The translations under genes and the position numbers were made by a program. Below, piece by piece: positions 19,709-28,412 of a stretch of 64,000 nt of DNA; the stretch's first letter is position 1; the number at the start of each line of letters is the position of its first letter. The stretch comes from Cetobacterium sp. (GTDB taxonomy: Bacteria > Fusobacteriota > Fusobacteriia > Fusobacteriales > Fusobacteriaceae). Location: the NCBI RefSeq assembly GCF_051649505.1, contig NZ_JBOFHF010000039.1. One strand, 5' to 3'. Below the pieces are notes generated by a model. That model ran no database searches. It worked only from the letters and a program-made list of their open reading frames with translations, and had not been told where the DNA came from.

Positions 19709-19726
19709 TTTTAAAAAATAAAAGGC

Positions 19727-19778
19727 AAAAGAAAAAGAGAGACATTTCTTCGGGGGGAGGGGCGTCTCTCTTTTCTTT
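19727..19778. terminator. Bidirectional terminator with a large G-rich loop
   Basis: AAGAGAGAC/GTCTCTCTT stem extended by A/T runs, between convergent genes. Confidence 0.7.
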
Positions 19779-19794
19779 ATAATTTTTGATAAAG

Positions 19795-20049
19795 CTATTT
19801 TTTAGTATTTATCTTCGAATAGATAAATAGAACAACCAAAGCACCTGCAGCGGCAGTAAAGATACTACCGAAATTTAATCCTTGAACAGAACCTATTCCG
19901 ATAAGCTTACCAAGATAACCACCAACAAAAGCACCAACAATTCCTAAAACCATAGTTGCTAAAATTCCGCCACCTTGTTCTCCGGGCATTATCCATTTAG
20001 CAAGAGCACCTGCAAGAATTCCAAGAACAATCCATGTGAAAATTCCCAT
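19795..20049 (-). CDS. GlsB/YeaQ/YmgE family small membrane stress protein
   Basis: MGIFTWIVLGILAGALAKWIMPG...GIVGAFVGG. The second ATG (20049) fits the AAGGAG RBS spacing. Confidence 0.9.
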   Translation of the reverse strand: MGIFTWIVLGILAGALAKWIMPGEQGGGILATMVLGIVGAFVGGYLGKLIGIGSVQGLNFGSIFTAAAGALVVLFIYSKINTKK

Positions 20050-24860: not shown

Positions 24861-25919
24861 ATGAAAAATTTTAATATTTTAGTTATCAATCCAGGATCGA
24901 CATCAACGAAAATTGCATATTTTACAAATGGAGTTGAGAAGTTAAAACGTGAGTTGCATCATGAGAGTGAGTTCTTGAAAACTTTGGATTACGAGGGTGA
25001 ATTGGAGTATAGATACTCTTTGATTAAAGAGTTGCCGATTGAGTTCAGCAATTTAGAGGCGGTTGTTGGAAGGGGTGGGCTTTTAAAGCCGTTGAAGAGT
25101 GGAACGTATTCTGTGAACGATAAGATGATAGATGATTTACGTAGTGAGTTTTATGGAAAGCACGCTTCGAATTTAGGTGGTATTTTAGCTAAGAAGATAG
25201 CGGATGAGCTAAAGATCCCGTCGTATATAGTGGACCCTGTGGTTGTGGATGAGATGAGTGAGCTTGCTAAAGTTTCGGGAATGCCTGAGCTTGTCAGAAG
25301 GTCGGTGTTCCACGCTTTAAATCAAAAGGGTGTGCTTAAAAAATATTGTAAAGAGTTGGGGATAGATTACAATGAAAAAACTTTTATAGCTGTTCATATG
25401 GGTGGTGGAATTTCGGTTGGGCTTCATAAAAATGGAGAGGTCGTAGATGTAAATAATGCTCTTGATGGAGATGGACCCTTCACTCCAGAGCGTGCTGGGA
25501 CTCTGCCGATTGGAGATTTCTTTAAGCTTTATTACACTGGGCAACACTCGAAGGAGTTTTTACTGCGAAGGCTAAAAGGTGATGGTGGAATCTCTGCTTA
25601 CCTTGGAACTAACAGTGTGAAAGAGGTTATGGACAGGGTTTTGAGTGGAGATGAAAAAGCTAAAAAAATTATAGATGCGATGTGTTATCAGATAGCTAAG
25701 GAGATTGGTGGTCTTGCTGCTGTTGCAGAGGGTGCTGTGGATGCTATCGTTTTAACTGGTGGAATGGCGTATTCGGATTATATCTGTGAGGAGATAACGA
25801 AACGGGTGGCTTTTATAGCTAAGGTTGTTCGTGTACCAGGGGAGTTTGAGATGCAGTCGCTATATGATGGTGGAGCTAGAGTTTTAAATAGAGTTGAGGA
25901 TGTGAAGGAGTATATTTGA
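24861..25919 (+). CDS. buk: Butyrate (branched-chain acyl) kinase
   Basis: INPGSTSTK, GRGG, HASNLG, VDPVVVDE, HALNQK and GPFTPERAG motifs. Confidence 0.95.
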   Translation: MKNFNILVINPGSTSTKIAYFTNGVEKLKRELHHESEFLKTLDYEGELEYRYSLIKELPIEFSNLEAVVGRGGLLKPLKSGTYSVNDKMIDDLRSEFYGKHASNLGGILAKKIADELKIPSYIVDPVVVDEMSELAKVSGMPELVRRSVFHALNQKGVLKKYCKELGIDYNEKTFIAVHMGGGISVGLHKNGEVVDVNNALDGDGPFTPERAGTLPIGDFFKLYYTGQHSKEFLLRRLKGDGGISAYLGTNSVKEVMDRVLSGDEKAKKIIDAMCYQIAKEIGGLAAVAEGAVDAIVLTGGMAYSDYICEEITKRVAFIAKVVRVPGEFEMQSLYDGGARVLNRVEDVKEYI

Positions 25920-25957
25920 ATTCTGAAAAGAGGTTATAAAAAGATTTTTACAAAAAT

Positions 25958-25986
25958 TTGATTTTTAGAAGAAAGAGTAGTATAAT
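25958..25986 (+). promoter_or_regulatory. sigma70 promoter for a candidate antitoxin sRNA
   Basis: TTGATT-N17-TATAAT. Confidence 0.7.
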
Positions 25987-25991
25987 TAACA

Positions 25992-26066
25992 CATAAACGA
26001 TTATAATTCAATGTTAATGACTACATTGTATGGGGAAGAGCTAGGAGTGAGAAACTAGCTCTTTTC
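25992..26066 (+). ncRNA. Candidate type I antitoxin sRNA (~75 nt)
   Basis: Own promoter and terminator, no ORF. 25996-26009 and 26014-26025 are exact reverse complements of 26143-26156 and 26124-26135. Confidence 0.65.
26036..26066 (+). terminator. Intrinsic terminator of the sRNA (and first terminator after buk)
   Basis: AAGAGCTAG/CTAGCTCTT 9-bp stem, loop GAGTGAGAAA, T-rich tail. Confidence 0.85.
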
Positions 26067-26081
26067 TATTTTTTGTAGTTA

Positions 26082-26090
26082 TGATATAAT
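26082..26090 (+). promoter_or_regulatory. Extended -10 promoter for the small toxin-like ORF
   Basis: TGaTATAAT; predicted start near 26097-26098. Confidence 0.6.
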
Positions 26091-26135
26091 TAGTATCAGT
26101 GGTTACTTACCCTAGAAAGGGGGTGTAGTCATTAA

Positions 26136-26195
26136 ATGCAAAGAATTATAATCGTTATTGCCCTTTTTTTACTACTTGCTAAAAAAGGATACTAA
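26136..26195 (+). CDS. 19-aa hydrophobic peptide MQRIIIVIALFLLLAKKGY, candidate Ibs-like type I toxin
   Basis: Strong AGAAAGGGGGTG SD-like element upstream, single hydrophobic helix, terminal Tyr, own promoter and terminator. Absent from the ORF track because of its size. Confidence 0.7.
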   Translation: MQRIIIVIALFLLLAKKGY

Positions 26196-26204
26196 GTAAT
26201 CACT

Positions 26205-26235
26205 AGCTAGGTGCCTCACTCACCTAGCTTTTTTT
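26205..26235 (+). terminator. Intrinsic terminator of the small-ORF mRNA
   Basis: AGCTAGGTG/CACCTAGCT 9-bp stem, loop CCTCACT, T-run. Confidence 0.85.
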
Positions 26236-26259
26236 AAGAAAAAAATACTGGGAGAAGAG

Positions 26260-27093
26260 ATGAAAAGAGTTACGGGGTTATTATTTTTATTACCACAATT
26301 GGTGTTAGGGCAGGATAGTTGGAGAGGGATTCCATATCCTATGAACCGTTGGGGTGTGTCAGTTATGGGTGTTAAGCAGACTGAGAAAGGAAACTTGACA
26401 GAGGCTAGTGTTTCGGGAATAAAAATAGGAGAAAAGTTAACTGCAAATGTAGACTTTTTAAAACCAGAGGATTTGAAGATGGATGCAGATGTTCAAATAG
26501 TTAAGGTGGATTATTTTGTATTACCGTTTTTAAATTTATATGCAATAGGTGGAAAATTAGAGGCAGCAGCTCAGTTTAATTTAGGGAGAGCTAATGTAAA
26601 TTTTGATAGTACAGGTAAACCAGTTTTAGATGGTCTTTTAGGGGCTGTTGGAGATGGGATAGCAGAATATGTTCCTAAAAGTATAGAGTATAAATCAGAA
26701 GGAAAGTTATATGGAGCAGGAGCTTTAATAGCTGGAGAGTACAATAGAGTTTTCTCATCACTTCAATATACATATACAAGAATAGAGATGGATGGAGATG
26801 TAGCAGCTAAAAGTGCTGAGGTTGCAGCAGGAAGAGTTGGTTATGTAGTTTATCGTAATAAAGGCTATTCTGTAACACCTTATTTAGGTGCAGCTTATCA
26901 AAAAACTGAGAGTTCATTATCTGGTCCGATTCCTGGGTTAGAGGGTGTGAATTATCAGTTCCAAATGGAGCTAGAAAAAGTAACACCATCAGTTGGAGTT
27001 TTCACAGTAATAAATGATAGTTTTACAGTTTTAGTGGATTATTCGTTTGGAGATAGAGAGACTTTAGCTATAGATTTAGGGTATAGATTTTAG
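26260..27093 (+). CDS. Hypothetical outer-membrane beta-barrel protein
   Basis: Signal peptide, amphipathic strands, C-terminal LGYRF BAM-type signal. Confidence 0.65.
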   Translation: MKRVTGLLFLLPQLVLGQDSWRGIPYPMNRWGVSVMGVKQTEKGNLTEASVSGIKIGEKLTANVDFLKPEDLKMDADVQIVKVDYFVLPFLNLYAIGGKLEAAAQFNLGRANVNFDSTGKPVLDGLLGAVGDGIAEYVPKSIEYKSEGKLYGAGALIAGEYNRVFSSLQYTYTRIEMDGDVAAKSAEVAAGRVGYVVYRNKGYSVTPYLGAAYQKTESSLSGPIPGLEGVNYQFQMELEKVTPSVGVFTVINDSFTVLVDYSFGDRETLAIDLGYRF

Positions 27094-27152: not shown

Positions 27153-27194
27153 ATATGATATAATCATTTATAAAATAAAAAAAAGGTGATTTAT

Positions 27195-28412
27195 ATGACT
27201 AAGTATGAAGAGTTGTTGAAGTTATATTATAAAAAACAAAATATAACAGAAGAGTTGGAAAAAAGATTAACTAATCCATGTACATATAAAACAGAATTAG
27301 AGATTTTTCCTATTTCAAAAGAAAAAAGAGTTATGGATCAAAAATTTGAACTATTCTATTTACCGATAGGGGATATATTGCTTTTAGAGGAGAAGATATA
27401 TAGACAGAGTGCAGAGATTCAAAGATTGTCTATAAACTTACCGATGATAGCAAGAGTTTCTTGTATCAGAGAGATTATGGTTAATGAAATTATAAAGACA
27501 AATGGAATAGAGGGAGTAAGAACTACTAAGAAAGATGTCTATGAAAGTATGGATTCGAAAAAGAAAACTAGGCTTTCTGGAATTATAAATAAATATAATC
27601 AAATAATAGAAAATAATATTGAGAGAATAGATTCTCCAGAAGAGATTAAAGAGTTATATGAATATATATTTTCTCAGGATATTTTGGAAAATCCAGAAAA
27701 TAGACTGGATGGAAAGCTGTTTAGAAAAGGAAGAATCCATATAAGTAATGGATTGAAAACGGTTCATATAGGAGATACATCTGAAGAGATGATTATATCT
27801 CATATTACAGATTTGGTTAAATTTATGAATAAAAGTGATATTCAAAGTCTTGTAAAAGCGTCGATAGCTCACTATTATTTAGAGTATATTCATCCGTTTT
27901 ACGATGGGAATGGACGTTTTGGAAGATTGCTATTTTCGATGTATTTGGCAAGAAAAACTGATGTTTTTACAGCACTTTCTCTTTCGTATGCAATATTTTC
28001 TGATAAAGATGGATATTCAAAGCTGTTTTTAGATGTTTCAAATCCTAGAAATTGTGGAGAGGTAACATTTTTTGTAAAAGGTATGTTGGAATTTATTTTG
28101 AAAGGGCAAGAAAGTATAATAGAGATGCTAAATCAAAATATAGTGAAGTTAGAATTTGCATTTCAGTATATAAAAGATTGTAGTTTAACAGAGATAGAAA
28201 GTGAGATTTTATCGATATATGTTCAAGGTTATATTTTTGCAGAGAGATCTCATATGAAAGATTCTGAAATTTTAGAGTATTTACCAATAAAAAGTAAATT
28301 GACTCTAAAAAAACATCTAGATTCGTTAGTAGATAAAAATTACCTTCAACAGATATCTAAGAGACCTTCTCAACATAGTTTAAGTGAATTTTTGAAAGGT
28401 GAGTTTGAATAA
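27195..28412 (+). CDS. Fic family protein with C-terminal winged-helix-like tail
   Basis: HPFYDGNGRFGR Fic motif and N-terminal TNGIEG inhibitory-type motif. GTG 27186 is an alternative start. Confidence 0.9.
   Translation: MTKYEELLKLYYKKQNITEELEKRLTNPCTYKTELEIFPISKEKRVMDQKFELFYLPIGDILLLEEKIYRQSAEIQRLSINLPMIARVSCIREIMVNEIIKTNGIEGVRTTKKDVYESMDSKKKTRLSGIINKYNQIIENNIERIDSPEEIKELYEYIFSQDILENPENRLDGKLFRKGRIHISNGLKTVHIGDTSEEMIISHITDLVKFMNKSDIQSLVKASIAHYYLEYIHPFYDGNGRFGRLLFSMYLARKTDVFTALSLSYAIFSDKDGYSKLFLDVSNPRNCGEVTFFVKGMLEFILKGQESIIEMLNQNIVKLEFAFQYIKDCSLTEIESEILSIYVQGYIFAERSHMKDSEILEYLPIKSKLTLKKHLDSLVDKNYLQQISKRPSQHSLSEFLKGEFE

Follow-up and report, generated by a model that had tools for sequence, protein, structure and literature searches.

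The window, a 64,000-nucleotide stretch of contig NZ_JBOFHF010000039.1 from Cetobacterium sp. (assembly GCF_051649505.1), carries two small predicted transcription units one behind the other on the + strand, located where the DNA behind the butyrate kinase gene (buk) is variable. The first (unit 1) is predicted to specify a short structured RNA and the second (unit 2) a messenger with a 19-codon hydrophobic open reading frame (ORF). Their parts, named here after the roles predicted for them, are the following.

25958..25986, + strand: sRNA promoter from the promoter scan, with −35 TTGATT (25958-63), a 17-nt spacer and −10 TATAAT (25981-86)
25993..26074, + strand: predicted antitoxin sRNA of ~80 nt (fold and covariance model; 5′ end inferred from the −10 box)
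25996..26009, + strand: site A, single-stranded 5′ tail of the predicted sRNA, complementary to toxin codons 3-7 (repeats, covariation, fold)
26009..26028, + strand: hairpin 1, stem CAAUG/CAUUG with loop 26014-26023 (repeats, stem covariation, fold)
26014-26025, + strand: site B, the hairpin-1 loop plus 2 nt, complementary to the spacer between Shine-Dalgarno sequence (SD) and AUG
26036..26074, + strand: terminator T1, stem 26036-44 / 26055-63, loop 26045-54 and U tract (fold and covariation)
26045-26051, + strand: site C, T1 loop sequence GAGUGAG (terminator-loop comparison)
26082..26090, + strand: toxin promoter, extended −10 TGaTATAAT (TGATATAAT), read from the sequence
26098..26236, + strand: predicted toxin mRNA of ~139 nt (fold, z = −3.5, and module alignment A2)
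26098..26109, + strand: 5′ arm of the 12-bp mRNA-closing helix, pairing with 26193-26204 (repeats, covariation, fold)
26110..26123, + strand: SD hairpin CCCU-AGAA-AGGG, which occupies part of the SD (covariation and fold)
26119-26123, + strand: SD GGGGG, read from the sequence
26124..26135, + strand: site B′, predicted target of the antitoxin loop between SD and AUG (repeats, covariation)
26136..26195, + strand: predicted toxin ORF of 19 codons plus stop, MQRIIIVIALFLLLAKKGY (sequence reading, coding signature)
26143..26156, + strand: site A′, predicted target of the antitoxin 5′ tail, codons 3-7 (repeats, covariation)
26193..26204, + strand: 3′ arm of the 12-bp mRNA-closing helix, made up of the stop codon plus 9 nt downstream (repeats, covariation, fold)
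26205..26236, + strand: terminator T2, stem 26205-13 / 26221-29 and U tract (terminator scan)
26215-26221, + strand: site C′, CUCACUC, T2 loop and stem edge, complementary to the T1 loop

Two predicted transcription units in tandem

The promoter that the earlier note had read for unit 1, TTGATT-17-TATAAT, is the best sigma-70-like site of the region in the promoter scan, and 39 of 40 distinct modules retain a promoter of the form TTGnnn, ~17 nt, TATAAT. The 80-nt RNA has a predicted minimum free energy of −24.4 kcal/mol (z = −5.2), and R1, a covariance model built on unit 1, scores 98 bits at 25993-26074. Across 22 copies the stems of the sRNA pair in 100% of cells, with compensatory changes, and hairpin 1 co-varies too in remoter copies (AAUG/CAUU to GAUG/CAUC). 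T1 is a strong and conserved terminator with a 9-15 bp stem and a long U tract, paired in 100% of cells and likewise carrying compensatory changes; it is absent from the terminator scan solely because its 10-nt loop exceeds the limit of the scan, and it folds cleanly, in agreement with the earlier prediction of a terminator here. The same prediction had described unit 1 as an ORF-less RNA of ~75 nt. Taken literally, this does not stand, as unit 1 holds a 15-codon ATG frame; the frame has no SD, however, and is cut to 3 codons in the paralogue L002 and to 10 in L040, so a conserved ORF was rejected and, the frame not being conserved, the sRNA is in effect non-coding. Tandem repeats were looked for in unit 1 by repeat search, and none was found.

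All parts of unit 2 that had been proposed (extended −10, SD, hydrophobic 19-codon ORF, terminator) were located. Its promoter is kept as TGnTATAAT or TGnTATACT in 38 of the 40 distinct modules, where it lies 7-9 nt ahead of the conserved GUGGUU with which the mRNA starts. The mRNA-closing helix is paired in 98.8% of cells, two of its pairs showing compensatory changes, and the SD hairpin in 96%; with a closing helix between its 5′ and 3′ parts and an SD hairpin, both covarying, the putative toxin messenger looks like a type I toxin mRNA. The ORF bears a strong coding signature. It is exactly 19 codons long in 32 of 35 distinct peptides, and T occupies the second position of codons 4-14 in 93% of cases, compared with 34% at the first and 40% at the third position, which together support translation of the peptide. 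The consensus reads M-x-R/K, eleven hydrophobic residues, x, K/E, K, G/V/L, Y, with a hydrophobic core in 35 of 35 variants, and the 19-aa frame has the character of the membrane-type peptide genes of <60 aa that are sought in type I systems. Codons 3-7 vary freely in their nucleotides, in step with the sRNA tail, while always encoding hydrophobic residues.

This arrangement could also be read as a single transcript, with unit 1 as a long 5′ leader that folds in cis onto the start region and T1 as an attenuator, either leaky or regulated; there would then be no diffusible antitoxin. Intramolecular pairing of this kind would be expected to yield the same covariation as pairing between two RNAs, and type III systems have the same order of sRNA, terminator and toxin, with read-through (PMC8167048). 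Moreover, two metagenome variants (L165 and L176) have no toxin promoter, which implies that the toxin there could be made only by read-through from the sRNA promoter, in a cis arrangement. Nevertheless, we consider the single transcript quite unlikely, given the extended −10 element that stands between T1 and the mRNA 5′ helix in those 38 of 40 modules, the strength of T1 and its retention with compensatory changes, an mRNA-closing helix that begins where the second promoter is predicted to start transcription, and the survival of many sRNA genes alone. The conservation of both promoters and of a strong T1 argues for a diffusible sRNA, short of proof, and the two RNAs are probably separate transcripts.

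Predicted, covarying contacts between the two RNAs

The repeat search returned the two pairs of exact reverse complements that had drawn attention to the locus, namely a 14-nt perfect inverted repeat (25996-26009 / 26143-26156) and a 12-nt one (26014-26025 / 26124-26135). When the 279 nt of 25958-26236 were shuffled with dinucleotides preserved, a perfect inverted repeat of at least 14 nt appeared in 1 of 300 shuffles, and the usual longest was 7-9 nt. As claimed, the target blocks surround the toxin start, the 12-nt block being the SD-to-ATG spacer and the 14-nt block codons 3-7. They are separated by a gap of 7 nt, AUGCAAA, so that the start codon lies inside the gap with a helix on each side. 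The bracketing of the start codon thus stands, with a correction to its position: the ATG occupies 26136-26138, immediately 3′ of the 12-nt block.

Compensatory change in the complementary blocks, which the earlier note had named as a check, was found in paralogues and homologues alike by module alignment and duplex energies. In the 14 whole modules aligned, i.e. the complete modules from genomes plus the plasmid, 97.1% of the cells in the inter-RNA helices pair, compared with 69.4% for shuffled columns and 36-45% for slid partners, and 19 of the 26 pairs have changed on both sides (90 cells). Helix 1 (site A/A′) is paired in 95% of cells and helix 2 (site B/B′) in 99%, with 9/14 and 10/12 pairs, respectively, changed on both sides; G-U pairs are tolerated. 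None of 500 shuffles attained any of the covariation measures, although these counts are not probabilities and overstate significance because the compared sequences are related by descent, a weakness that affects neither the comparison with slid partners nor the orthogonality seen among paralogues of a single genome. Nowhere is the module more variable than in its recognition blocks, and the surrounding scaffold is nearly invariant.

These properties also bear on a reading at the DNA level, in which the inverted repeats would delimit a miniature mobile element, serve in recombination or form a cruciform. The element is indeed multi-copy, sits in variable regions and coincides with assembly breaks at contig ends. 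On the other hand, its arms are the most variable segments and yet complementary within each copy, the opposite of what transposase-bound ends would show; they tolerate G-U pairs, lie internally rather than at the termini of the element, and one of them falls within a conserved ORF. Mobile-element ends and a cruciform were rejected on these grounds, and we give the DNA-level reading as a whole hardly any credence.

The pairing between the RNAs is also specific. RNAduplex energies range from −26 to −34 kcal/mol for cognate pairs (mean about −31) and average −11.4 ± 5.2 for non-cognate ones, and paralogues inside one genome are mutually orthogonal in their pairing. The same holds for 31 distinct metagenome modules, which were chosen by the toxin 5′UTR alone and hence independently of the sRNA: cognate pairs reach −32.3 kcal/mol compared with −15.5 ± 5.9 for non-cognate pairs, and 22 of the 31 sRNAs have their cognate target as the best-ranking one, most of the remaining cases being near-identical relatives or truncated contigs. 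Full-length cofolding, in which the gain is counted after paying for intramolecular structure, favours the cognate pair of the window by −13.9 kcal/mol and non-cognate pairs by ~0.

A third contact joins the two terminators. The T1 loop GAGUGAG (26045-51) is complementary to CUCACUC of T2 (26215-21), and across module types the loop pairs change in step: GUGAG/CUCAC, GUCGG/CCGAC, GGGCGAA/UUCGCCC, GGGUAA/UUACCC, GUGCAA/UUGCAC, GGUGGCAA/UUGCCAC and GGGGAAAA/UUUUCCC. The mean complementary run between terminator loops is 6.45 nt in cognate and 4.3 nt in non-cognate pairs. Judged from these alignments, the inter-RNA pairing is under selection, and the module appears to hold an sRNA gene with its own conserved promoter and terminator that is complementary to the toxin mRNA at three covarying sites.

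Distribution, genomic setting and loss

The module belongs to a family whose members occur in genomes of Cetobacterium and its close relatives, on one C. somerae plasmid and on metagenome contigs. A second copy in the genome of the window (G000 contig 21, L002) is 74% identical across the whole module, and genomes of the same genus, mostly from fish guts, carry one to several copies. In a search of 131 genomes of the family with R1, real matches came from 14 of 22 genus genomes and from two neighbouring genera. The tandem order on one strand, each unit with promoter and terminator, is kept in homologous modules; the layout is shared by all 14 complete modules of the alignment and by those metagenome modules whose upstream DNA is long enough for a judgement. 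Weaker R1 matches in other Fusobacteriaceae genera and at 19726-19816 of the window were rejected as just the common GAGCTAG...CTAGCTC-type terminator. Terminators of the form AAAAAGAGCTAG-loop-CTAGCTCTTTTT stand behind unrelated Cetobacterium genes (e.g. L140, L141, L144 and L146, as well as this window site) and produce such weak matches.

Small plasmids are a recurrent setting. On the 4.1-kb mobilisable C. somerae plasmid NZ_CP092525.1, rep is immediately followed by a complete module; this was also the only plasmid recovered in searches with divergent metagenome variants. The toxin-5′UTR pattern returned 38 loci on metagenome contigs, 36 of them real modules (GC 22-38%), and metagenome copies adjoin Rep_3 initiators, a Mob_Pre relaxase and a P22-type antirepressor. 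The 5′UTR pattern had no match in viral contigs, nor did the module in the phage collection, and Rfam covariance models run against 25700-26500 gave noise only (best 18.7 bits vs a gathering threshold of 90, and 18 vs 128).

The chromosomal neighbourhoods vary. Downstream of the module in the window are a gene for a signal-peptide protein ending in GYRF, with no Pfam match (26260-27093), and a Fic/DOC gene (27186-28412). In a close relative (L152, G017 contig 62), an extra HTH-Fic gene lies between buk and the module, with the palindrome TTAACGAAATATCGTTAA ahead of it. The second copy in the window's genome is followed on the same strand by an outer-membrane gene of the MipA family (L002 631-1377, E = 7e-39). 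Since neighbours differ elsewhere, a link with outer-membrane genes, which stand downstream of both copies in this genome, was rejected.

Several divergent or partial forms were also seen. Another Cetobacterium genome carries a second scaffold with the same same-strand layout (L022, G006 contig 36, 1440-1730, minus strand; peptide MLKILIVIVFFLLAKNLY), which is more divergent, differs in hairpin and terminator and has both recognition blocks; its sRNA also occurs without a toxin, upstream of the extra Fic gene in G017 (L152 1968-2085). L085 (G010 contig 269) and L068 are 3′ halves of the sRNA (hairpin 1 and T1) with no promoter of their own, placed directly after outer-membrane-type genes ending in GYRF or GYIF, and may serve as terminators or 3′UTR-derived sRNAs. 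In L046/L069 (G014 contig 31) the ORF is extended to 31 aa (MMSKIIFIGILFLLIFFIYYKNILDILSHIF), without the KKGY end and T2, and the sRNA and both recognition blocks are intact. In L045/L089 (G010 contig 140) the sRNA gene is followed by a TGATATACT promoter and then by an unrelated ORF that does not match (MSFFMYVFLIACVYYNKKGNPWF...). L125/L127, from another genus of the family, show a promoter, a short RNA and a terminator, then TGATATAAT and GGTGGT...AGGAGGTG with a longer non-hydrophobic ORF, in which no complementarity to the small RNA was seen.

Loss within the family is asymmetric. When the sRNA itself was the search query, 28 distinct sRNA genes were recovered; 11 of them lack a toxin, and in two the toxin is disabled, by a premature stop (L099) or by deletion of the SD (L016). 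In a further two loci (L048, L050) the toxin ORF has been cleanly removed from between T1 and T2. Conversely, toxins located by their own 5′UTR nearly always have the sRNA upstream. In one low-coverage contig, L191, the toxin is present and the 5′ half of the sRNA is replaced. Some orphan sRNAs match toxins elsewhere at cognate strength, such as L017 against the plasmid toxin (−30.1 kcal/mol).

It could be argued that the pairing is real and the peptide a harmless small membrane protein under sRNA control, which would make the module a regulatory pair rather than an addiction system. Bacteria have many non-toxic small hydrophobic proteins, and short hydrophobic peptides are not always toxic. 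What makes this unlikely in our view is the combination of a multi-copy module with mutually orthogonal specificities within one genome, its location on tiny plasmids beside rep and mob genes, the repeated loss of the peptide gene with the sRNA kept and almost never the reverse, and a self-locking mRNA architecture typical of type I toxins (PMC7472228). We therefore favour a toxic peptide, and we infer that the sRNA represses its synthesis in trans.

A candidate type I module and its relation to known systems

The interpretation offered in the earlier note, an antitoxin built from same-strand inverted repeats upstream of its toxin, is supported by the comparative evidence, and its sequence-level predictions all held. 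A type I toxin-antitoxin module with the two genes in tandem on one strand is the probable reading of the locus, and we hold it with good confidence. In the mechanism that we propose, a near-consensus promoter would give the ~80-nt sRNA, its 5′ tail free and followed by a small hairpin and an intrinsic terminator, and ~20 nt downstream the extended −10 promoter would give the ~139-nt mRNA for a 19-residue hydrophobic peptide with basic ends. Alone, the mRNA would hold its very 5′ end in the 12-bp helix with the stop-codon region and its SD partly in the small hairpin. The two RNAs would probably first kiss through their terminator loops (6-8 nt), after which the hairpin-1 loop would settle on the 12 nt between SD and AUG, and the sRNA 5′ tail on the 14 nt of codons 3-7, this order of contacts being the likeliest in our view. 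With only AUGNNNA left unpaired, the initiation region would be clamped and binding of the 30S subunit blocked, and the sRNA-mRNA duplex could possibly be cut as well. Carried on small plasmids, the pair would cause the death or arrest of cells that have lost the plasmid, and the chromosomal copies and toxin-less sRNA genes may be relics or give protection against such plasmids. Fusobacteria have been reported to be without Hfq and ProQ; such an absence, if true, would fit extended, structured antisense pairing that is independent of a chaperone.

The closest functional parallel is par/Fst of Enterococcus faecalis pAD1 (RNA I/Fst and RNA II; homologues e.g. Lpt), which likewise has short, separated contact blocks near the start together with complementary terminator loops, an mRNA whose 5′ end is sequestered in a helix and whose SD lies in a stem-loop, and a plasmid location adjoining replication genes (PMC7472228; PMC5608710). 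The 5′ sequestration and the SD stem-loop are conserved among par-like loci, and in par of pAD1 it is a terminator-loop kiss that starts complex formation, which the T1/T2 loop contact of Cetobacterium resembles (PMC7472228). However, the par RNAs are convergent, run across direct repeats and share one bidirectional terminator, whereas the Cetobacterium module has tandem genes, inverted DNA repeats and two separate terminators with matching loops; Fst has ~33 aa and a PXXXG-type motif, compared with 19 aa and no such motif here. The likeness in multi-site contact, terminator loops, 5′ helix and SD stem-loop is functional only.

The peptide itself is more reminiscent of Ibs of E. coli. Both are hydrophobic, have 19 residues, start with M-x-R/K and end in Y (IbsC is MMRLVIILIVLLLISFSAY). 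A profile comparison with hhalign gave a probability of 64% over 13 columns, which leaves homology unproven. Sib, in contrast, is a fully overlapping antisense RNA from the opposite strand, whereas the Cetobacterium sRNA gene lies upstream on the same strand. Inside the ORF, the minus strand gave no sigma-70-like site in the promoter scan, and in alignment A2 the best minus-strand candidate, TATAAC (AATAAC in this copy), is without the −7 T and is not conserved. An overlapping minus-strand antisense RNA was accordingly rejected, as it has no conserved promoter and would leave the covarying repeats unexplained.

In tisB/istR-1, zorO/orzO, dinQ/agrB and timP/timR, as in Cetobacterium, the sRNA gene stands beside the toxin gene without overlap and complementarity is limited. 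Antitoxins encoded next to their toxins in the manner of tisB/istR-1 pair through one contiguous block, often in the 5′UTR or at a standby site; the Cetobacterium sRNA differs in lying on the same strand, in using three blocks and in the predicted clamping of the start codon. The sRNAs of those four systems are divergent and on the opposite strand (PMC12390103; PMC8167048). The gene order is instead that of type III systems such as ToxIN, with antitoxin RNA, Rho-independent terminator and toxin on one strand (PMC8167048). There the antitoxin RNA consists of a repeat array and binds a protein toxin, an endoribonuclease, whereas the Cetobacterium module has a 19-aa peptide toxin, an sRNA that would pair with the mRNA, and a promoter for the toxin itself. 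By analogy, the module would combine a type III layout with a type I mechanism and par/Fst-like contacts.

In a 2025 paper, an antitoxin of type I is by definition encoded on the strand opposite to its toxin, and the systems known until then are placed in Proteobacteria, Firmicutes and Tenericutes only, to which the paper adds a cyanobacterial candidate (PMC12390103). An opposite-strand antitoxin, overlapping or divergent, is not what we find, the sRNA being on the strand of the toxin in the 14 aligned complete modules and in the metagenome modules that could be judged. Fusobacteria are not mentioned by Fozo et al. (2010). In the full-text literature, whose coverage leaves out many subscription papers, we found no type I system reported in Fusobacterium, Cetobacterium or Fusobacteriota, and no type I antitoxin described upstream on the same strand, consistent with the earlier note, whose author knew of no characterised example of this layout. 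On balance we lean towards an undescribed type I class, the first in Fusobacteriota, with a same-strand upstream antitoxin gene and with contacts through tail, hairpin loop and terminator loop, each of the three evolving separately. Its dozens of mutually orthogonal pairs would circulate on small plasmids and leave behind toxin-less antitoxin genes in chromosomes, which may neutralise incoming plasmids.

If so, the opposite-strand assumption in searches for type I systems (PMC12390103) would miss real systems, as this same-strand family illustrates, and systems missed in this way would help to explain the apparently narrow phylogenetic range of type I, which would extend to Fusobacteriota. With at least 30 variants in which three short contacts have co-evolved on a fixed scaffold, the family would offer a ready-made set of orthogonal sRNA-mRNA pairs, usable for studying the evolution of RNA recognition specificity and, along the lines of devices engineered from other type I systems (PMC12721322), for regulatory devices. 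The module also marks small Cetobacterium plasmids, which are possible vectors for this abundant fish-gut commensal.
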